Below are positions 2,987 through 11,918 of a stretch of DNA of 64,000 nt, piece after piece. Under the pieces are notes generated by a model. The model searched no databases. It saw only the letters and a list, made by a program, of their open reading frames with translations, and was not told the DNA's origin. The stretch comes from Prevotella sp. CAG:755. Its GTDB lineage: Bacteria; Bacteroidota; Bacteroidia; Bacteroidales; Bacteroidaceae. The translations under genes and the position numbers were made by a program. The first letter of the stretch is position 1, and every line of letters starts with the position of its first letter. The stretch spans positions 1,183,816 to 1,247,815 of the forward strand of contig OZ006989.1 of assembly GCA_963931215.1 (NCBI GenBank), written 5' to 3'.

Positions 2987-3121
2987 CTAATGAAAAGGCA
3001 ATGAGGGATATTGCGAAATATTAGAGTCAAAGGGCTGCTTCAGGTCAATGACCATCAGAACGAGGTTTCTGATGCCCAATCTGATATCATCAAGGAAAGA
3101 TACTGAACTGTTTTTCTTCAT
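2987..3121 (-). CDS. Possible 44-aa small ORF or gene fragment
   Basis: MKKNSSVSFLDDIRLGIRNLVLMVIDLKQPFDSNISQYPSLPFH, with an A-rich leader, downstream of the promoter at 3243-3272. Confidence 0.3.
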   Translation of the reverse strand: MKKNSSVSFLDDIRLGIRNLVLMVIDLKQPFDSNISQYPSLPFH

Positions 3122-3242
3122 AATGAGTTGAATTTTATTGGTTTATACTGTACCAATCGCATCGCTGGTGCCACCTTGATTTCAACATCAGGTTGGCGAG
3201 CCACTGTAGGCTTCTCTTGATGCTTCTTGATTTTTGCTGAAA

Positions 3243-3292
3243 CAAAGGTAGGAAGAGTTTTCCGGAAAACAATCATCCATTCCGTTCATTTG
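3243..3292 (-). promoter_or_regulatory. Promoter (TTG-19 nt-TACCTTTG) with a conserved 29-bp upstream element, copy 1
   Basis: -7 box at 3243-3250, TTG at 3270-3272. Bases 3264-3292 match 6002-6030 at 28/29. Confidence 0.65.
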
Positions 3293-3302
3293 CCTTCTTC
3301 AC

Positions 3303-4178
3303 TTATGGGAGGTTCTGTGGGACTTGGCCAACTGTTGCCTGCTGTCTTTCCTGTTTGATTGCCAGCGCCTTCAGGTCAAAGCCATACTTGCCGTATATCC
3401 TTTCGATTTGGGACCAATCGGCACGTTCGCCAAGGCACCAGGCGATATAGTTGATGATTTCGTACATCTGCACCGCCTCTGCCTCCATGAGCACAGGTAC
3501 ATAATTCTCATAGGCAGCATTGTCGTAGGGCCTTCTGTCTGATCGCGACACCTCGAAGTCGAGCAGTTCCAGCGCCCACGTGTAGTTTTGCGGGTGCATG
3601 GCGTTGTGCATGACATGATGGTCGTGGAGCAGCTGCAGGTTCCGAACGACCACTTCGGCGGCATACAGGTGGTAGAGCCCGTCGATGCGTCCCCACCTCT
3701 CCAGATATTCCCGCAACATGCCTTTGGGCATGAAGCCATAGTCGTTGATACGGTACGGGCATTCAACGCTATACTGCAGCAGGGCGGCCTGGCATTCCTG
3801 GCCTCCTTTGAGGATGGTTCTGTCCAATGCCACTACGCTCTCCATGCAGTTTGTCCTGATGCCGAGGCTGCTTGCCTCCATGCCTATGTCATAGTCCCTT
3901 ACCGCATTCTCCAAAGGCAGGCCGCCCCAGGTGTCACCCCACTGTTTCGAGGTGGCGAGGTAAGGGTATGAAGTATAGCTCAACCCGTTCCCTTTTCCTA
4001 TAATCCATTTGAACTCGTCTGTACGGCGGAGCAGGAAACTGCGCCCGTGCCTCGGACTGACGCACCAGATGGTCTCCCGTCCCTGGTCGTTGCGTATGAG
4101 CGGAAGGATACTGACGCTGTCGTCTCTTTTGCGAACCGCCTGACAGCCGGCGGCCTTTTCTGCCTTGAATGTCTGCAT
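3303..4178 (-). CDS. Minimal SelO/YdiU-like protein-kinase-fold enzyme (putative AMPylase/kinase)
   Basis: Collinear SelO-type motifs: RHGRSFLL (GDGRxxLL), IGKGNGLS (LKGAGLT), AVRDY..SLGIRT (IRE..LGIPT), HNAMHPQN (HGVMNTDN), LLDFE (LDYG). Confidence 0.65.
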   Translation of the reverse strand: MQTFKAEKAAGCQAVRKRDDSVSILPLIRNDQGRETIWCVSPRHGRSFLLRRTDEFKWIIGKGNGLSYTSYPYLATSKQWGDTWGGLPLENAVRDYDIGMEASSLGIRTNCMESVVALDRTILKGGQECQAALLQYSVECPYRINDYGFMPKGMLREYLERWGRIDGLYHLYAAEVVVRNLQLLHDHHVMHNAMHPQNYTWALELLDFEVSRSDRRPYDNAAYENYVPVLMEAEAVQMYEIINYIAWCLGERADWSQIERIYGKYGFDLKALAIKQERQQATVGQVPQNLP

Positions 4179-4206
4179 GGCTTTTAATTTGAGGATTTAC
4201 GATGAA

Positions 4207-4238
4207 GGAGGAGACACTCGCACGGGAATGCCTCCTCC
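4207..4238 (-). other. 13-bp stem-loop between the peptide gene and the SelO-like gene
   Basis: Minus-strand GGAGGAGGCAUUC / GAGUGUCUCCUCC with a 6-nt loop and two G-U pairs. No long U tract, so it may stabilise the mRNA or attenuate readthrough. Confidence 0.6.
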
Positions 4239-4259
4239 CGTTTTGGCGAACTGCAAAAC

Positions 4260-4367
4260 TTATGTGTTGTGCTTTACAAGTACGGTCGGGCATGAGCTCT
4301 GGTAAGCGCATGCCGACATGGTCATGATGCTTGACACATGCTTGGCCTTCAAATCGTTTTCTTTCAT
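4260..4367 (-). CDS. Putative RiPP precursor peptide, 35 aa
   Basis: MKENDLKAKHVSSIMTMSACAYQSSCPTVLVKHNT. ATG is 35 nt after the rSAM stop, co-oriented, followed by a hairpin. Below the ORF-track size cutoff. Confidence 0.6.
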   Translation of the reverse strand: MKENDLKAKHVSSIMTMSACAYQSSCPTVLVKHNT

Positions 4368-4402
4368 ATTCTGCAGATTTTGAAAGATTACAGGAATAGT
4401 TC

Positions 4403-5958
4403 TCAGGACACTCCATTTATCCCCGCCTGATCGCGGTAGCTGACCGTGGTCAAGCGTCTTAACGCCGGTATTTCTATGCGGAGGCTGTCAAGGGCCTCCT
4501 GCAAGCTTCTGCCTTGCAACGGATCGTAACCGTCCTTTATCTTCTGGGCCAGTCCATACCGCTCCTTGGCCAGGTAACAGTTGTTCTCCGACGGCCGCAG
4601 CGGATTACCATGGGCGGTAAAGTTGTTGCCGGGGCACATCTGGCAATACAGGCAATACGGCTGCCGGTGGCACTCGGTGCAGTCGCCCAGCCGTTGCTCG
4701 CGCCACCATCCCAGCGTCCTGCTCCGGTTGACCGTCTCCATGAACGATGCGTCGCGCACGTTGCCCACCTTCATGGGAAAGGCGCAGCAGGGCTGAATGT
4801 TTCCCTCGGGCGTTATGCAGAACGTGCTGAATCCGGCCGAGCACATCAGTTCGTCCGGCTTGGTCTCCAGTACGGCCACTTCGCTGTTGCTGATATAATA
4901 AGGAAGGTCCCGGTCGCGCAGCACCACTTCCAGCTCCTCATGCCCGAGGCGCAGGCAGGTGGACGCGCAGCGGTCACCGTCGACGGAGTCGGTGATGTTA
5001 AGGTCGAACTGCGGCAGTGCGCCATACTTACAGGCAACTTCCTTCACCGTGGGGTATGTCTTTACATTGGGCTTCATGATGCAGCACTTGAGCATCATCG
5101 GCAAGGCAAGCTCGCTGCACCTCTTTATGAAGGCCAGGGTGCAGTCATGCGAGTCCAGCACACGAGTGATGGAATCGTGCACTTCCGCACGTCGCTGTAG
5201 AGCGAAATGCCGATGGAACGGGGAAAGAAGCCGGCCAGACGGTCAACGTCGTCCGCCACGCTGACGCCATTGGTAAAAATGTCGATGGCCAGTCCCTTGT
5301 CGTGGAGATAGGACAGGATGTCCCAGACAATCGGTTTTGAGAACGGGTCGCCGTCGGAAAGCGTCACCTTTACGAGTCCTTGCCCGTACAGCTCGTCAAT
5401 GACGCGCTTGTATTCGTCGAGCCGCAGTTCGTCACGTTGACCGCGCAGGCTTTTCTCCTTAGAATTCCTTGTGGCGCCCGCATTGTAGCAATGGATGCAC
5501 ATCTCGCTGCACCGGTATGTCAGCTCGAGCATGACGCTTGTCACCTGTCCGGTTCGTTCCGCATACATCCGTTCCGCGTCTGCCGTGCCGACGCTTATCG
5601 CTTCGCGCATGTCCTGCACGCTGTCGGCGACCTGCTTTTTGCGGCAGCTCAGCAAGCCGTCCCGATAAAGCTTCACATCCTCCGCCGTGGCCACACGGTT
5701 GGCAAGCAGGCCATGCTGTGCCATGTCATCAAAGAAAGTTTGGAGCCTGTCCGCATCCACACCGCTTTTCAAGGAAATGTCTTCAACTGTAAACGGCGTG
5801 TTGCGGTCCATATCAAGAAGGCAGCCTACGACGAGGGCTGACGTGTCTTCATAGTAATAGCACAACCCCTCTATGAGGTTGTAGTAGATGGCGGCACGAT
5901 GAGCAGGGTCGTATCGTCCGCATGTCCATTCCGGTCTGAGGTATTCGGTCATTGCCAA
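4403..5958 (-). pseudogene. Radical SAM/SPASM peptide maturase with an N-terminal PqqD/RRE-like domain, frameshifted at 5187/5188
   Basis: CxxxCxxC (CSEMCIHC) lies in ORF 5125-5958 and SPASM cysteines (CSAG..QPCC..CTEC..CLYCQMCPG..C) in ORF 4403-5182. Adding one G (GTG[G]CG GAA GTG CAC GAT) fuses them into ~518 aa. Confidence 0.8.
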
Positions 5959-5980
5959 CGAAGTTTAAAATTAGCAATGA

Positions 5981-6030
5981 CAAAATTAAAGTCAACCTAT
6001 GGGAAAACAATCATCCATTCCGTCCATTTG
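5981..6030 (-). promoter_or_regulatory. Promoter of the rSAM operon (TTG-19 nt-TAATTTTG) with a conserved 29-bp upstream element, copy 2
   Basis: -7 box at 5981-5988, TTG at 6008-6010. Same spacing and upstream sequence as the 3243-3292 promoter. Confidence 0.65.
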
Positions 6031-6065
6031 ATATGTGCAACATGCAAGACCGGCAAACTGGGATG

Positions 6066-6173
6066 TCATTCCGTTTCGCCGTCGTCGTATTGGAAACGCT
6101 TGTCCGTGTAGTCGCCGTAGAATGCCTTGTCATCTTCGTTGCGCATCATCTGACAGTATTGGTTTACAAGGAA
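6066..6173 (-). pseudogene. Detached 3' end of the Ser/Thr kinase gene
   Basis: In-frame continuation FLVNQYCQMMRNEDDKAFYGDYTDKRFQYDDGETE* once the IS and one TSD copy are removed. Confidence 0.8.
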
Positions 6174-6294
6174 ATAATCTTGGGAATGATATACCAGATT
6201 GCCCAGCATTAATATAGCAATAAATATCGAGGATTTCAAGTTTATCTGTGATATCGTATGATATCTAAAGCTAAAGATCGCTAGATCATTTGGT

Positions 6295-7275
6295 TTGTTA
6301 AAAAAGGATCTGTACTTTAGCCAGCGTAATGATAAAAGGCATACGATTATGATTGGATTGGAGAAATTTGATAACTTGATTTCCTTGATAACTTACTTCA
6401 AGGACAACGCAACCTGCAAGCAGTTCCTGAAAGAACAGAGATGGGGTGATGACGTGGTATGCCCTTATTGCGGACACCACCATTGTTATTCACGTTCAAA
6501 CGGACAGTTCCGCTGTCCGAATTGCTTGAACAATTTCTCCGTCCTTGTCGGGACAATCTTTGAGAACACCAAGATTGCCTTGGTGAAATGGTTCTCTGCC
6601 ATGTACCTTATATCTTCCCATAAGAAAGGTATCTCTTCTCACCAATTGGCAAGGGATATCAATGTCACGCAAAAAACGGCTTGGCATATCCTGCACAAGG
6701 TGCGTTCTCTTTACAGCCAAGACGATTCTATCGAACTGTCAGAAGATGTGGAGTGTGACGAGGCATATATCGGTGGCGACGAGAAGAACAAGCACGAAAG
6801 CAAGAAAACCGAAGGCACGCAAGGCCGTTCCTTAAAGACCAAGACACCCGTCTTCGGAATGGCTCAGAGAAACGGTAACATTGTCGCTATGAAAACCCAA
6901 GATACGAAAGGCAGGACATTGATGCCTATCATCAGGCAGTTTGTAAAGGATGGCTCTCGTATCTATACTGACGAATATATAGGTTACAACTCCTTGGTAG
7001 AAAGCGAATACAGCCACGCTGTCGTTAATCACGGAGCGAAACAGTTCGTGGATGGTGACAAACACACCAATACCATTGAAGGCTTCTGGGCGCAATTGAA
7101 ACGTGCAATCTTTGGCATCTATCACTTTGTTTCAGCAAAGTATCTCAAAAGGTATGTGGATGAAGCCGTTTTCAGCTATAATTCACGAGAGCAATCTGAA
7201 AGCGAGCGTTTCAGAATTATGTTCAAACGCTCAATCGGAATTTTCCGTTATGCAGATGTGAAAAATGTTGGATAA
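6295..7275 (+). CDS. IS1595-family (ISXO2-like) transposase
   Basis: Zn-ribbon CPYCG..CPNC, HTH region, ECDEAYIGG, YTDEY, NTIEGFW..LKR..GIYH. Confidence 0.93.
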   Translation: MLKKDLYFSQRNDKRHTIMIGLEKFDNLISLITYFKDNATCKQFLKEQRWGDDVVCPYCGHHHCYSRSNGQFRCPNCLNNFSVLVGTIFENTKIALVKWFSAMYLISSHKKGISSHQLARDINVTQKTAWHILHKVRSLYSQDDSIELSEDVECDEAYIGGDEKNKHESKKTEGTQGRSLKTKTPVFGMAQRNGNIVAMKTQDTKGRTLMPIIRQFVKDGSRIYTDEYIGYNSLVESEYSHAVVNHGAKQFVDGDKHTNTIEGFWAQLKRAIFGIYHFVSAKYLKRYVDEAVFSYNSREQSESERFRIMFKRSIGIFRYADVKNVG

Positions 7276-7354
7276 AGGTATTGATTCCTTCTATTTGTTT
7301 GCGTATATTATAAGTATATAAATTGATATAAAAAATGGATAAAAACAAAATTTC

Positions 7355-7621
7355 ATGATTAAAGAATCTAAAGATTGGGAAAACGCGATATATGAGCGGA
7401 TAGAAAGTTATCAACGAAATGGATGGAAAGATTGGTTTGCTACATGTCTATTGCAGATGGCATTTGAGAAAGAGTTTGAGCTTGACATTACAACAGACTA
7501 TCTCACATCGTTTATGAGTGCATACTCAAAAGCACTACAACGGCTAATTAATGAAGGAAGACTTACGGTAAGTGGTGCTATACAAAGTTCATTTGGCGGT
7601 CAGGTATTCGGAAGGATGTGA
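7355..7621 (+). CDS. Hypothetical protein, IS passenger
   Basis: 88-aa ORF inside the TIRs; no recognisable motif. Confidence 0.55.
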   Translation: MIKESKDWENAIYERIESYQRNGWKDWFATCLLQMAFEKEFELDITTDYLTSFMSAYSKALQRLINEGRLTVSGAIQSSFGGQVFGRM

Positions 7622-7742
7622 ACTCTTTTCATATAATCCAATAAATCATTTTCGGTTTTAAAGATTTGGAACATGCTCAGATTTTTACTCCAAATCGCAT
7701 ATAGTTTAAATTTTAAACCATTAACGCATACAATTTTTGTCC

Positions 7743-8189
7743 TTATACAAAAGTCTGTATGCTGCATATACTTATGACTATTTTTGTTGGAAAAATAAGA
7801 CACAATAAAAGACCTATCATTTCTCCAAAACAATATGCCTGTACATTTAACTCCCTGATGCACTCCAATACAATTCGACGGATACGATTTCTTAGAAGCA
7901 CTTCGTGCATGTTTTGCGCATGGCAGGCATCCTCAACGTATATTGTATCGCCTTCGATTCGGTAAGCAAAATACCATTTCCATGCATTGGCCATAAACAA
8001 GCCGTTCCATCTGGAAATCGTAGGTTTTCGTCTCAGCAAACCATTCTCTATCTTGTAAATGGATGAGCATACTTTCTTATAATCTGAATTAAGATTCTCG
8101 TAGGAATAGGTATGCCTATACTTCTTAGCAACATTTCTATAAAATGATAGGATTTTTCTATACACATTTCTGTTAACTTTATAGCTCAT
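7743..8189 (-). CDS. RelE/ParE-like toxin candidate, IS passenger
   Basis: Basic protein with a WYFAYRIEGDTIYVEDACH segment resembling the terminal strands of the RelE/ParE fold. Start overlaps the upstream stop (TAATG). Confidence 0.45.
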   Translation of the reverse strand: MSYKVNRNVYRKILSFYRNVAKKYRHTYSYENLNSDYKKVCSSIYKIENGLLRRKPTISRWNGLFMANAWKWYFAYRIEGDTIYVEDACHAQNMHEVLLRNRIRRIVLECIRELNVQAYCFGEMIGLLLCLIFPTKIVISICSIQTFV

Positions 8190-8374
8190 TACGGCATCTC
8201 ATATATCATTTTTATTTGTGTATCAATTAACTGATACATTTCTTCCACCGTCATATATCCTGTCTTTTGGATTTCCTCACTAAGCAAGGTTTTGACTTCC
8301 CCGTTTTCAACATAGACTCGGCTGCCATTGATTATGGTTTCATTCAATTTGTTCTTATCTTTTTTCGTATTCAT
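8189..8374 (-). CDS. Small protein, antitoxin candidate, IS passenger
   Basis: 61 aa from ATG 8374 (MNTKKDK...MIYEMP), coupled directly upstream of the toxin-like gene. Confidence 0.45.
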   Translation of the reverse strand: MNTKKDKNKLNETIINGSRVYVENGEVKTLLSEEIQKTGYMTVEEMYQLIDTQIKMIYEMP

Positions 8375-8535
8375 CTTTTCGTTCTGATTTATAAGTTGGC
8401 AACAACGCAAATATACTACAAAAACATGTTTATGACAACAAAAATAGCATGTTTTTACAATAAATATAGCCGAAATAAAAACGCATATCAATAAAAATCA
8501 CTAACTCACTCGTTGGAATGGGCTAGTGATTGTTG

Positions 8536-9786
8536 TTATTTTAAGGATTCACATTTCTCTGGGTAATCTGGTATATCATTCCCATAATCCTTAGTTTGCT
8601 CACACTCATGAAAGAAGTCATCTTCACTGAAGATCCGCAAACCTTTGTATTTGCCATGCCATAGTTCGTTGAATACGGGCATCAGACCGTTTTCCCACTC
8701 CACCGCGGTTCTGGAATAACGCTCCATCGAGGCGGATGTCAGAACGGCCGAGTCATTGTAGGCGCCCAACAATTCGTCGAACGACGGACGTACAAGTTCG
8801 CGCAGTTCCTTTCGTAATTCCTTGTGCCGGGCTTTGGTCATTTTGGGGAAGGAAGATACGGCCGGAGTCTGCAGAAGTTGCGTGCGGGCTGAGTCCTTGA
8901 CCGGCACGGATGGCATCGCTGCAGCGCCTTGTTCGTCGGTCTTAGCCTGATCGGGAACTTTCTCCGGTATCGTTTGGGACGGTTCTTCTTCCTGACGGTT
9001 TTCTTTTGGGTATGTAATCAAGAAAGCGGTTACAACCAGCAAGGCGGCAGCAATGGCGTAGGCCGCTTTATGCCAGTGGGCCTTGCGGAAGGCGGCAGCC
9101 TTCAGCTCGTCCACAGTCTGGTAGCGTAAGGCCTTCTCCTCCGCCGTGCATCGTTTGGCTATCTTTCCGTACCGGGAAGCACACGGCAGCTGCTGCAATA
9201 TCTTGCCAATGGCATAGATGTCCGTGCGTTCATCCGCCTTGCCATCTTCTTCCTTCTGTTCAGGGGCCGCGTAAAAGTCCGTCCTTCCCGTCGTATCGGG
9301 AAACCCGTCCGTATAGCAGAAACCGAAATCAATGATCCGGACATCATGGCCGATGTCCGTGAGGAGGATGTTCTGCGGCTTCAGGTCGATGTGGAGCACC
9401 TGGTGGGCGTGAAGATACCCTACGACGTCGAGCAATTGTTGAAGGAAGCGGTCGGCGTTCTCCATTTTTTGAAAGTATCCGGGATGGCTCGCCAGGAACG
9501 CCTCCAGTGTCTCGCCCTCCACATATTCCATGATGATGTAGTCCTCGCCGCGCGACACGTATCTCACAAGACCGGGATGTTCGAGGGTGAAGCCAGTTTC
9601 AAACTCCTTTTGCAGGATGGCACGGTAAAGCGGATCGGAGGCGAATGCCGGCTTCAGACGCTTCATGAAATACATCTTTCCATAAAGCCTGACACGGAAT
9701 CCGTCACACGTCGAACCGTTGGCGGCCATGGGCATGGCCTCGCCCGTCAGGTCGTGGGCTGAATTGTCAAACGACGAGTTCTCCAT
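8536..9786 (-). CDS. Membrane-anchored Ser/Thr protein kinase, truncated by the IS
   Basis: YFMKRLK, HIDLKPQN, IIDFG, APE, DIYAIG, TM helix AAYAIAAALLVVTAFLITY. The residues after KDY (GNDIPDYPEKCESLK) are read from the IS end. Confidence 0.88.
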   Translation of the reverse strand: MENSSFDNSAHDLTGEAMPMAANGSTCDGFRVRLYGKMYFMKRLKPAFASDPLYRAILQKEFETGFTLEHPGLVRYVSRGEDYIIMEYVEGETLEAFLASHPGYFQKMENADRFLQQLLDVVGYLHAHQVLHIDLKPQNILLTDIGHDVRIIDFGFCYTDGFPDTTGRTDFYAAPEQKEEDGKADERTDIYAIGKILQQLPCASRYGKIAKRCTAEEKALRYQTVDELKAAAFRKAHWHKAAYAIAAALLVVTAFLITYPKENRQEEEPSQTIPEKVPDQAKTDEQGAAAMPSVPVKDSARTQLLQTPAVSSFPKMTKARHKELRKELRELVRPSFDELLGAYNDSAVLTSASMERYSRTAVEWENGLMPVFNELWHGKYKGLRIFSEDDFFHECEQTKDYGNDIPDYPEKCESLK

Positions 9787-10330
9787 CTTTCAAGATTCTC
9801 AAGGCGGTCAATCCGCCAACCTTGCCGGCCGTATATGAGCCGAGGCTTTCGCCGTCGCGCCTTACATCGCTGACATATAAGGGGTACTTGCGCATCATGT
9901 GCCAGATTTCCAGCTCGTCACCGGCGCAGAGCTTGCTGTTCACGCTTTTCTCCACCAGATACTTGTGATCGCCTATGTTGCGGATAATTAGTTCGCGGTC
10001 CGGCTTATAGGTCAGGCGCACCCGTGAACCGACAGTGACCCGATCCACAATGTCGGGCGGGTTGAAGCCCGAGCTGTACATCTTGTCTCCCATCTTGGAG
10101 AGCATGTTCCAGTTGTCATAGCCCAGATATCGGGCGATGATGTCGAGGGTGGAAACGCGCGGCTGCTCGTCCTCCAGAAGGCCGAGCAGCCGCTTCATCG
10201 TGTTCAATCCGAACGGCTGGCCTGTCTTGCCCTCGATGTCCAGCACCAAGCGCTCGACATCTGACGAGGTGCTCAAATCGCTTCCCGACTTTTTCTTTAA
10301 CTCTTCTTGAACTTGGAATGGCAGTATCAT
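9767..10330 (-). CDS. Hypothetical protein with an N-terminal HTH-like domain, coupled to the kinase
   Basis: GLNTMKRLLG..PRVSTLDIIARYLGYDNW resembles an HTH/Xre helix pattern; overlaps the kinase start. Confidence 0.65.
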   Translation of the reverse strand: MILPFQVQEELKKKSGSDLSTSSDVERLVLDIEGKTGQPFGLNTMKRLLGLLEDEQPRVSTLDIIARYLGYDNWNMLSKMGDKMYSSGFNPPDIVDRVTVGSRVRLTYKPDRELIIRNIGDHKYLVEKSVNSKLCAGDELEIWHMMRKYPLYVSDVRRDGESLGSYTAGKVGGLTALRILKDGELVV

Positions 10331-10682: not shown

Positions 10683-11918
10683 ATGGCTGAGATATTCTAT
10701 CATGGTTCGTCCCGTCTATTCACCAAGTTCAACCTGGATTTCGCGTTGGAAGGCACAGGAAAGGTGAAGTTCGGCTTCGGTATATATGTGACTTCCAATT
10801 TCGCATCGGCTGCCAACTATTCGAAGACACCCGATGGCGGGGCCGATGAGAGGCATTATGTATATACCCTGGAAGTGATCGGCAAGACCAAGTCGAACTA
10901 TATAAGCTATGTCGAGCCGGTCAATCCGCTGATTGTACGGAAAGCCCAAGAGAAACTTCAGGGGGAAATACCGCCTGCATATGCTGCCAACGGCAAGCTT
11001 TTCCGCAAGTACATAGGGATTAGGCTGTCCCATGCGGAAGCTGAATGGAGCAAGCTGTCCCAAGTCACTGACCCGGACAAGGCAAAGTTGCAAGTGGGCA
11101 TCGAGGAAGAGAAGGCCGCTTCCATGCTTCTCCTTCAAATTGGAGTGAAAATGATTGAATGGCCCTATTCATGGAGGGCTGGAGAGACGCGTTTCAACAG
11201 GGCCATCCTTAAGGCTGAAAACATCAGAATCCTGAAAATCGAAGAGGTAAGGCTTGACGAGAAAGGGAAATACATCGAAGGATCCAACACGCTTGTCAAG
11301 GACATGGGCACCAATCCCCATTCCCTGGCGCCGCTCATCAGAGCGCATTATCCTGAATATTGGGGAATGAAGGAATATCCGGCTGACAAGTGCGTTACCA
11401 TACACAAGCTGGACGAGGAATGGGGCATATTCTGCAATTTCGCCAGGACTCCGCTGGTGGTGCAGGGCATACGGTTCAATACAGCCGAGCATCTCTTCCA
11501 AGTCCTGAAATTCAAGGAGGCGGAATGCGTATGGGATGTCTATAACGCCCCGAACCCCAAGATGCCGGCCAAGAAACTGGAAACGCTCCACCGCCGTCCC
11601 GATTGGGGGATGATCTTCATCGACGTGATGAAGTTCTGTTTGATGACGAAATACGAACAGAGCAAGGAGTTCCGCGAAAAGTTGGACGAAACAAGTGGAA
11701 TGTATATCGTGGAGGACCAGAGCACGTTCAAGAAGCCGGCAGACGCATGGGGCGTAAAACTCGAAAGGCCGGCAGACGGCAAACTCCCTCAAAAATATCT
11801 CGGCCCCAATATTCTCGGCAGGTTGCTTATGGAACTCAGGGATCGGGGAACGCTTGAATACGCCCTTCCCGATGATATTCTGGACGGTTTGGCCTGCATA
11901 AAGGTCTCACAGCCTTAA
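10683..11918 (+). CDS. ADP-ribosyltransferase-like domain fused to a NADAR (DUF1768/YbiA) domain
   Basis: N-terminus YHGS..F..F..GKVKFGFGIYVT..A..YS (PARP-like H-Y). C-terminus FCNF..TAEHLFQ..KF..KY.Q..L..IVED..WG..GPNILGRLLMELR (NADAR). Confidence 0.78.
   Translation: MAEIFYHGSSRLFTKFNLDFALEGTGKVKFGFGIYVTSNFASAANYSKTPDGGADERHYVYTLEVIGKTKSNYISYVEPVNPLIVRKAQEKLQGEIPPAYAANGKLFRKYIGIRLSHAEAEWSKLSQVTDPDKAKLQVGIEEEKAASMLLLQIGVKMIEWPYSWRAGETRFNRAILKAENIRILKIEEVRLDEKGKYIEGSNTLVKDMGTNPHSLAPLIRAHYPEYWGMKEYPADKCVTIHKLDEEWGIFCNFARTPLVVQGIRFNTAEHLFQVLKFKEAECVWDVYNAPNPKMPAKKLETLHRRPDWGMIFIDVMKFCLMTKYEQSKEFREKLDETSGMYIVEDQSTFKKPADAWGVKLERPADGKLPQKYLGPNILGRLLMELRDRGTLEYALPDDILDGLACIKVSQP

Follow-up and report, generated by a model that had tools for sequence, protein, structure and literature searches.

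We analyzed a 64,000-nt stretch of contig OZ006989.1 of Prevotella sp. CAG:755 (GCA_963931215.1, positions 1,183,816-1,247,815; hereafter the window) and identified in it a compact gene cassette that is real and conserved in gut Bacteroidales and apparently undescribed. The cassette consists of three genes that follow one another on the minus strand: a gene for a radical S-adenosylmethionine (rSAM)/SPASM maturase with an N-terminal RiPP recognition element (RRE; RiPP, peptide synthesized ribosomally and then modified post-translationally), a 35-codon open reading frame (ORF) for a precursor-like peptide, and a gene for a 291-aa kinase-fold protein, here termed mini-SelO (Table 1). We interpret the trio as a horizontally mobile peptide-maturation cassette of an undescribed kind, a reading to which we assign a probability of about 0.6 and whose mechanism we infer. 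The first-pass annotation of this DNA had reported three co-oriented genes and proposed an undescribed RiPP system with a SelO-like enzyme. All three genes are present, and the arrangement is not due to chance because it recurs in about 80 species genomes. No description of this combination was found in the full-text literature, Pfam, NCBIfam or PADLOC, in agreement with the claim of novelty; full-text searches that combined SelO with radical SAM and RiPP, or kinase-like and AMPylation with RiPP, or that used the peptide motifs, likewise gave no match, and a survey of Bacteroidales RiPPs has no mention of a kinase-fold partner (PMC10352776).

A back-translated pattern scan covering one genome per species yielded 80 loci, nearly all of them from rumen or gut metagenome-assembled genomes of Bacteroidales (Prevotella, Muribaculaceae, Paludibacteraceae, Alistipes and others). 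In 77 of these loci, mini-SelO is immediately preceded by an orthologous rSAM/SPASM gene, the remaining three ending at contig ends, and an ORF of ~34 aa is located between the two genes in 76 of the 77. The recurrence of an rSAM gene and a short Cys-containing ORF beside the SelO-like gene, which had been named at first pass as the check on the proposal, is thus what these counts record. When the search was started from the rSAM side in a sample of 151 Bacteroidales genomes, full-length orthologs were found only in the two cassette genomes, and one further genome (G031) holds a truncated rSAM remnant without the peptide or mini-SelO. Judged by gene order, the maturase, the peptide and mini-SelO form an obligate gene trio.

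A profile search with mini-SelO against 1.84 billion representative proteins returned only 145 clusters, the outliers among which are 300-350 aa long and have E-values of 1e-8 to 1e-17. Three distant mini-SelO outliers also adjoin an rSAM enzyme; the relatives with this arrangement are 313-351 aa long. The peptide cores at two distant loci with readable DNA are MQGCGKNWDNDCGIM and MSGCTKQSQSNCGIGYR; the peptide of one distant locus (..MQGCGKNWDNDCGIMKKNG) is encoded upstream of the rSAM gene, and that of a distant high-GC organism reads ..AMSGCTKQSQSNCGIGYRMG. Since the same maturase and a recognizable peptide occur at these distant loci, the partnership reaches well beyond Bacteroidales. We read the cassette as horizontally mobile. 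It is present in one of 25 species of the genus (none of the 24 other species) and in about 1-2% of the order.

The maturase gene of the window is split into two overlapping ORFs, whose products align to residues 1-255 (73% identity) and 256-516 (77%) of the intact 516-aa homolog from locus L001; its true start is likely the ATG at 5952. Alignment of 44 homologs revealed invariant cysteines both in the CxxxCxxC motif (C148, C152, C155) and in the SPASM region (C371, C389, C428, C434, C437, C440, C459), and the PF13186 and TIGR04085 models score over their cut-offs in the C-terminal fragment of the window. In the AlphaFold (AF2) model of the L001 homolog (predicted local distance difference test, pLDDT, 89), the chain begins with three to four strands and three helices that form an N-terminal domain, and continues with the barrel and SPASM, and the RRE region (strands 3-35, helices 37-79) is modeled with pLDDT >90. 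A Foldseek search with this model placed CteB first (3e-14), followed by PqqE, SuiB and SkfB, and the alignments to CteB and SuiB span the full length, RRE included. The PDB sequence-profile matches are SkfB (1e-14), PqqE (1e-13) and CteB. The rSAM/SPASM protein with an RRE-like N-terminal domain described at first pass was thus recovered, its Pfam domains by direct match and its RRE through the predicted structure aligned to CteB and SuiB. The architecture of the maturase is RRE, rSAM and SPASM, with the RRE assigned from the predicted fold.

At the level of families, the best NCBIfam match of the N-terminal fragment in the window is the mycofactocin maturase. The intact homologs do not reach the NCBIfam equivalog cut-offs for sactipeptide and ranthipeptide maturases (AlbA, 70-82 vs 850 bits; SCIFF, 44 vs 425; PapB, 47 vs 340) or those for mycofactocin and pyrroloquinoline quinone (PQQ) maturases (MftC, 73-80 vs 265; PqqE, 65 vs 381). 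PADLOC 2.0 gave for the maturase generic rSAM matches to pVip alone (E 5e-12, N-terminal core only).

The window peptide contains C20, C26, five Ser, three Thr and one Tyr, exactly as first annotated, and belongs to a conserved family of precursor-like peptides with an ~34-aa consensus MKVELxISKxSxVVxMSxCPKxxExxCGIMYRSx. Four positions do not vary among 75 distinct peptides (window numbering): Leu6, Ser/Thr12, Cys20 and Cys26. Glu/Gln23 is found in 72. Position 12, Ser or Thr in all 75, is the sole invariant hydroxyl residue, whereas the Tyr position varies (Y in 61, W in 8, L in 4, V in 1 and A in 1). This refines the first-pass reading, which had counted Ser, Thr and Tyr residues: Tyr is not conserved in the family. 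The window belongs to a small subclade, together with L001, L012, L013 and L014, in which the core is CAYQSSCPTVLVK[HFY]N and the cysteines are spaced as Cx5C in place of Cx7C; L014 has three tandem precursor copies. Some cassettes also contain an extra conserved ORF of ~75 aa (MVNQ.FQELKR...GDM.PQGK) between the peptide and mini-SelO genes, which is not universal.

At least 278 homologs of the 291-aa protein were found, about 275-285 aa long (270-290 aa for the family as a whole), and no Pfam domain was detected in any of them. The Pfam, NCBIfam and PADLOC hidden Markov models (HMMs) gave no meaningful match for the window protein (best PADLOC E 0.009), nor did Pfam at E<=10 for any of 56 family members, and the PDB profile search returned only weak matches to kinase catalytic loops (E 0.2-1.4). 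When its AlphaFold model (pLDDT 93.7) was compared with the PDB by Foldseek, ranks 1-9 were all SelO/YdiU (E. coli YdiU and P. syringae SelO), with E-values of 2e-8 to 9e-8 and query template-modeling (TM) scores of 0.48-0.58, and the next kinase follows at 1e-5, more than 100-fold worse. An hhalign comparison of the family with eight SelO sequences was not significant (E 0.05, probability 1%), yet it is collinear over 226 columns; with a single SelO sequence the motifs are again collinear and the score is not significant. The kinase fold with SelO-type motifs claimed at first pass is thus supported by the fold and the aligned catalytic motifs and unsupported by sequence HMMs.

The collinear alignment pairs mini-SelO residues with those of E. 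coli SelO as K62/K107, R94-D95/R129-E130, R143/R177, Q197-N198/D246-N247 and D207/D256. Four residues that are invariant in the family (K62, D95, N198 and D207) coincide with the SelO catalytic set K107, E130, N247 and D256. YdiU residues K107, E130, D246, N247 and D256 have been probed by mutation, and the D256A variant is inactive (10.1101/692707); the SelO motifs are listed in PMC12599244. In total, K62, D95, R143, N198, D207 and ~40 other positions are invariant at ~44% mean identity, and the nucleotide/metal-ligand set is retained even in relatives as remote as E 1e-8. Where SelO has Asp246, at least 90% of members have Gln197, and some distant relatives have Asp. Mini-SelO lacks the N-terminal ~70 residues and the entire C-terminal domain of SelO (478 aa), ending ~70 residues past the DFE motif, and canonical SelO is absent from the host genome. 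These comparisons support the 291-aa protein as a predicted minimal enzyme of SelO fold in which the catalytic Lys, Asn and Asp are retained.

The Asp of the HRD motif is missing in mini-SelO (HNA), and this, together with Gln at the Asp246 position, would suit a true pseudokinase that serves the maturase as a non-catalytic scaffold or peptide chaperone rather than as a transferase, a role that many pseudokinases have taken. We consider this very improbable, given that SelO itself is active without the HRD Asp, and that the invariant positions listed above are maintained and the ligand set persists in remote relatives.

The cassette also encodes two candidate RNA structures. A stretch of some 40 nt, running from the last part of the rSAM ORF into the peptide leader, shows nucleotide-level conservation that is independent of the rSAM frame; in the window, the peptide ORF starts 35 nt past the rSAM stop. 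The stretch forms a predicted H-type pseudoknot with a P1 of GGGA/UCCC type, a 5-bp P2 whose 5' strand lies within the P1 loop, a loop that is almost always UAAAUG, and UAUAAC on the 3' side. Across 70 aligned sequences, pairing holds for 94% of cells, and eight of nine pairs show double changes (for example, one P1 pair is AU in 41 sequences, GC in 25 and CG in 2); none of 500 shuffles was as good, and slid controls were also far off. The covariance model matches two of the 151 Bacteroidales genomes, both at the cassette, and the window copy scores 47.8 bits. A search of window positions 3000-6400 against Rfam 15 at E<=10 left the pseudoknot unmatched and returned only an unrelated SAM-I/IV aptamer. 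We thus regard it as a cassette-specific candidate for a new cis-regulatory RNA class.

Three other explanations of the pseudoknot were considered and rejected. For a known riboswitch class, Rfam gave no match. A frameshift or readthrough signal that joins the rSAM and peptide ORFs is contradicted by the peptide frame, which differs between clades (mostly +1, -1 in the window), by the AAAGGGA heptamer, which occurs in one clade only, and by the rSAM stop, which some clades have ahead of the knot, some within it and some past it. Finally, the conserved AUG in the knot does not behave as the start of an upstream ORF, as neither frame nor length is conserved. The second structure is a hairpin after the peptide gene (-28.1 kcal/mol, z -4.8 in the window), and a strong hairpin of unrelated sequence is found at the same position in all ten loci that were folded. 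A hairpin after the precursor gene is the usual means by which RiPP operons raise the precursor transcript over that of the enzyme.

The copy of the cassette in the window is damaged. The rSAM gene breaks inside a conserved ..SD(V)AE.HDSITR.. block, where 5 nt stand in place of the two codons expected in ..AE.HD.ITR.., hence one base has been deleted. The same frameshift, with no indel relative to the window, is present in contigs from four runs of four chicken-gut studies, so the frameshift noticed at first pass is real and fixed in the population. In one strain the peptide start is changed from ATG to ACG, and the same strain carries D146N at an invariant mini-SelO position. Nonsynonymous and synonymous changes between the runs number 5:5 in mini-SelO and 9:5 in rSAM. 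The suspected inactivity of this copy is borne out by a maturase frameshifted in all strains seen and by the absence of a peptide start in some. Broken copies also occur at L003 and in G031, whose remnant retains only the C-terminal half of the rSAM gene beside housekeeping-sized ORFs that we take to resemble NadD and Gmk; we read this remnant as a further sign of frequent cassette loss by decay. As far as its sequence tells, the window cassette is a horizontally acquired, decaying and inactive relic in a chicken-gut bacterium.

Table 1. Features of the cassette, its surroundings and related loci (window positions unless a locus or genome is named)
Feature	Coordinates	Strand	Evidence or remark
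rSAM/SPASM gene overall, two overlapping ORFs	5958-4403	-	ORF reading
rSAM N-terminal fragment, RRE and CxxxCxxC core, 277 aa	5958..5125	-	Radical_SAM PF04055, E 4e-11
rSAM C-terminal fragment, remainder of barrel and SPASM Cys motifs, 259 aa	5182..4403	-	SPASM PF13186, E 3e-7; TIGR04085
Frameshift, 1-nt deletion	about 5183-5187	-	5 nt where 2 codons expected
H-type pseudoknot RNA (predicted)	4385..4426	-	rSAM ORF end into peptide leader
35-aa precursor-like peptide MKENDLKAKHVSSIMTMSACAYQSSCPTVLVKHNT	4367..4260	-	homologous ORF in related loci
14-bp stem-loop, attenuator/terminator-like	4206..4239	-	3' of peptide gene; without U-tract here
Mini-SelO, 291-aa kinase-fold enzyme (predicted)	4178..3303	-	K62, R94-D95, R143, N198, D207
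29-nt element upstream of cassette promoter	6002..6030	-	matches GGAAAACAATCATCCATTCCGTYCATTTG
Candidate Bacteroidetes-type -7 box TAATTTTG, upstream of rSAM gene	5981-5988	-	spotted by eye
29-nt element, all copies	3264-3292; 6002-6030; G000:C1:1181831-1181859	- (6002-6030)	pattern search
187-aa protein, no known family	10330..9767	-	neighbor clustering
Membrane Ser/Thr kinase, C-terminus removed by insertion sequence	9786..8536	-	Pkinase, E 7e-24
IS1595-family element between kinase and cassette	6181..8584	.	26-nt terminal inverted repeats, 6181-6206 and 8559-8584, 96% complementary
ORF of the window insertion sequence, 326 aa	6295-7275		ORF list; family name not from this ORF
SAM-I/IV aptamers	3129-3228; G000:C1:1181696-1181795 = L101 9697-9796; G000:C1:2354846-2354950 = L109 3347-3451	-	55-62 bits, gathering 41
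DEAD/Helicase_C and 722-aa protein pair	276-2852; L101 9927-12095	-	Pfam/PADLOC scans
Extra ~75-aa ORF	L005 5780-6004; L106 1058-1285		conserved in some cassettes
rSAM remnant, C-terminal half only	L112 1432-2367 (genome G031)		without peptide or mini-SelO

To survey the neighborhood, the ORFs of 83 loci were clustered over 8 kb of flanking DNA to each side of the cassette. Only two further recurrent families were obtained, a membrane Ser/Thr kinase and an ~187-aa protein, each in 22 loci, with at least one of the two in 24 of the 83 loci; the pair is located either codirectionally upstream or convergently downstream of the cassette. No conserved protease, exporter or transporter recurs within these limits, in line with the first-pass statement that none is adjacent, and none of the mycofactocin or PQQ partner genes (MftB/D/E/F, PqqB/C/D) is among the conserved neighbors. 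The kinase homology in the window ends at residue 343, and the C-terminus past the insertion sequence (IS) is unconfirmed by homology. The IS, which holds extra AT-rich ORFs and interrupts the kinase gene, was assigned to its family through a near-identical contig; there the rSAM gene is immediately preceded by a 192-aa ORF with the DDE_Tnp_IS1595 and Zn_ribbon_IS1595 domains.

The surroundings of the cassette are of the mobile and defense type, comprising a DEAD helicase with BrxHI/DruE-like matches, NACHT, AAA_15/21, RhuM, PIF1 and Fic proteins, integrases and IS elements; the linked kinase matches the PD-T4-6 defense kinases in PADLOC (E 2e-28), and the GC content of the cassette (50-60%) exceeds that of its flanks (35-45%). 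Such a setting would fit a conflict or defense module, in which mini-SelO would be an effector that nucleotidylates a cellular or phage protein, the modified peptide its cofactor, inhibitor or activating signal rather than its substrate, and the kinase a sensor. The patchy distribution, the frequency of broken copies and the lack of a conserved exporter all agree with this explanation, as does the fact that the characterized SelO/YdiU enzymes act on proteins. However, the PADLOC models are unmatched by mini-SelO or the cassette beyond the generic rSAM matches, the kinase module is restricted to the 24 loci mentioned above, and the three tandem precursors of L014 resemble a natural-product locus. 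Moreover, the characterized RRE-rSAM-SPASM enzymes with an adjoining short Cys peptide are all peptide maturases. On balance, we consider a defense role unlikely.

A second alternative concerns the fate of the peptide, which could be the source of a cofactor or other small molecule in the manner of PQQ and mycofactocin, the maturase cross-linking the CG[IV]x[YW]R core and mini-SelO activating it before its excision as a redox or signaling compound. The core is kept across distant lineages (MSGCSK..E..CGIMYR in Bacteroidales, MSGCTKQSQSNCGIGYRMG in the high-GC organism), unlike the hypervariable cores of antimicrobial RiPPs, and the exporter is not conserved. The NCBIfam match to the mycofactocin maturase and the standing of PqqE, which takes second place by PDB sequence and follows CteB closely by fold, point in the same direction, as does the CG[VI].Y motif of the peptide, which resembles the C-terminus of MftA. 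Yet the conserved neighbors include no peptidase, no oxidoreductase and no enzyme that uses a cofactor, the MftC and PqqE cut-offs are missed widely (73 vs 265 and 65 vs 381 bits), the CGIxYR core is absent from the window subclade, and patchy mobile spread would be unusual for a cofactor pathway. This origin of a small molecule appears to us quite unlikely.

The peptide-maturation cassette that we favor would operate as follows. The RRE would bind the N-terminal L-x-[IV]-S-K-x-S-x-V-V region of the peptide, and the rSAM enzyme, with its two auxiliary Fe-S clusters, would introduce cross-links at Cys20 and Cys26. These would most likely be thioethers, as CteB and SkfB suggest by analogy, and the conserved Glu/Gln at position -3 from Cys26 is a candidate acceptor. 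Mini-SelO would then AMPylate or phosphorylate the peptide at the expense of a nucleotide, with the invariant Ser12 as the best candidate target site. The product would probably be intracellular or leave via general export. The pseudoknot and the hairpin may determine how strongly the peptide is expressed relative to the enzymes, and the neighboring membrane Ser/Thr kinase module may regulate the cassette in the 24 of 83 loci that carry it. A more specific version of this scheme is a new RiPP class, in which mini-SelO places a nucleotide or phosphate on the cross-linked 34-aa peptide to give an intracellular conjugate that would be the signal, or the effector, of a mobile conflict module, with a precursor gated by a new ligand- or protein-binding pseudoknot and the whole under the control of the membrane Ser/Thr kinase; this we put forward only tentatively, as one possible outcome.

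Several observations weigh against the maturation cassette as we read it. PF02696 (SelO/YdiU) is unmatched by any of 56 mini-SelO members at E<=10, so that the protein, which resembles a SelO-type transferase in its predicted fold, lies outside PF02696 by the family's own HMM test. SelO homology is weakly supported by sequence, the assignment being based on the predicted fold and on motif collinearity. To judge from the aligned sequences, Gln at the Asp246 position may mean that the reaction differs from AMPylation. We infer the thioether and the AMPylation or phosphorylation chemistry, as well as the role of the peptide as mini-SelO substrate, and Ser12 may perhaps be only part of the RRE recognition motif. 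Moreover, the core of the window subclade (Cx5C-PTVLVK) differs from Cx7C-GIMYR, and a single product chemistry may not fit all members. Finally, mobile and defense islands, patchy spread and frequent pseudogenes fit a conflict system equally well.

Additional observations concern the regulatory units around the cassette. The 29-nt element is present in exactly three copies in the genome, matched with zero mismatches by a pattern with a single free position (T or C). The copies head the rSAM cassette and two SAM-I/IV riboswitch units, and both window copies have a Bacteroidetes -7-like box 13 nt downstream, which for the cassette is TAATTTTG. In two runs, contigs branch at the 3264-3292 copy into other sequence, and this copy may represent a junction between alternative cassettes. 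All three SAM-I/IV aptamers of the genome precede non-metabolic genes: one is followed by a 44-aa ORF, a DEAD helicase and a 722-aa protein, and the other two by NADAR-domain genes, each split across two reading frames. A SAM-type aptamer ahead of defense-island genes is unusual. Aptamer copies 1 and 2 are near-identical over ~190 nt from the promoter to the start codon, thus the unit has been duplicated. The window aptamer at 3129-3228 was considered as a part of the cassette and rejected, as it is absent from ten other loci and belongs to the duplicated promoter-riboswitch unit.

The DEAD/Helicase_C protein has BrxHI, DruE and SngC-like matches in PADLOC (E 1e-27), and its 722-aa partner belongs to no Pfam or PADLOC family. 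The pair also follows the cassette in near-identical contigs, and possibly constitutes an uncharacterized two-gene defense system under riboswitch control. At L001, positions 10788-10872 contain an 84-nt match to positions 1077-1160 of bacterial 23S rRNA (70 bits) just upstream of a Ro60/TROVE gene, which may be a partner of the Ro protein, of Y-RNA-like or rRNA-mimic type.

To our knowledge, all SelO-type enzymes described so far are stand-alone AMPylases or UMPylases of proteins, with functions in redox and stress control. Obligate pairing with a maturase would give the SelO fold a new role in natural-product or signaling chemistry, and mini-SelO would serve as a minimal, 280-aa model for the catalytic core of SelO. 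Conservation of the peptide core across distant lineages, together with the lack of an exporter, suggests one conserved intracellular target rather than a variable antibiotic. The pseudoknot, with its clean covariation, is an easily testable candidate regulatory RNA class. All parts of the cassette are small and could be transferred to E. coli, using an intact homolog, such as the L001 or L005 type (45-77% identical), rather than the broken window copy.

Among known systems, the closest to the maturase half of the cassette are CteB/CteA (a SCIFF ranthipeptide) and SkfB/SkfA (a sactipeptide), which share the RRE, the rSAM core and the SPASM/Twitch auxiliary clusters, and in which a short Cys-containing precursor likewise adjoins the enzyme. 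CteB by fold (3e-14) and SkfB by sequence (1e-14) are the best matches of the maturase among solved structures. In contrast to these systems, the cassette has an unrelated peptide family with two Cys only, adds an obligate kinase-fold partner and a pseudoknot RNA, and has no conserved exporter or protease. Mycofactocin (MftA/B/C) and PQQ (PqqA/D/E) biosynthesis also involve an rSAM-SPASM enzyme acting on a short peptide with a conserved C-terminal core and no exporter, and the maturase counts PqqE and MftC among its nearest relatives. The cassette differs by its fused RRE, by the absence of a peptidase and downstream oxidoreductases, and by its mobile, patchy occurrence.

The partnership of a kinase fold with a Cys-containing precursor has a parallel in the class III and IV lanthipeptide synthetases LanKC and LanL, in which a kinase-fold domain acts on Ser/Thr of a ribosomal precursor that also has Cys due to form thioethers. 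There, however, the kinase is fused to a lyase and a cyclase and the thioether arises by Michael addition, whereas the cassette combines a radical SAM enzyme with a SelO-like kinase fold and has no lyase or cyclase; homology between the two was undetected. If mini-SelO AMPylates the peptide, the product would resemble microcin C (MccA/MccB) as a peptide-nucleotide conjugate. In that system the C-terminal carboxamide is the target of MccB, an adenylyltransferase of E1-like type, the clusters carry an exporter, and there is no homology with the cassette.

SelO/YdiU, the best fold match of mini-SelO, is collinear with it through the motif pairs HGRS~GDGR, KGNG~KGAG (with the Lys), RD~RE, LGIKTN~LGIPTT, PYRI~HLRF, HNA.H.QN~HGVMNTDN and LDFE~LDYG, and both proteins are without the HRD Asp. 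Mini-SelO differs from SelO in size (~280 vs ~480 aa), in the loss of the C-terminal helical and redox (Sec/Cys) region, in having Gln in place of Asp246, and in the lack of a Pfam match. The genomic context sets the two apart as well, since canonical SelO is a stand-alone housekeeping gene, whereas mini-SelO always adjoins the gene of a peptide maturase.

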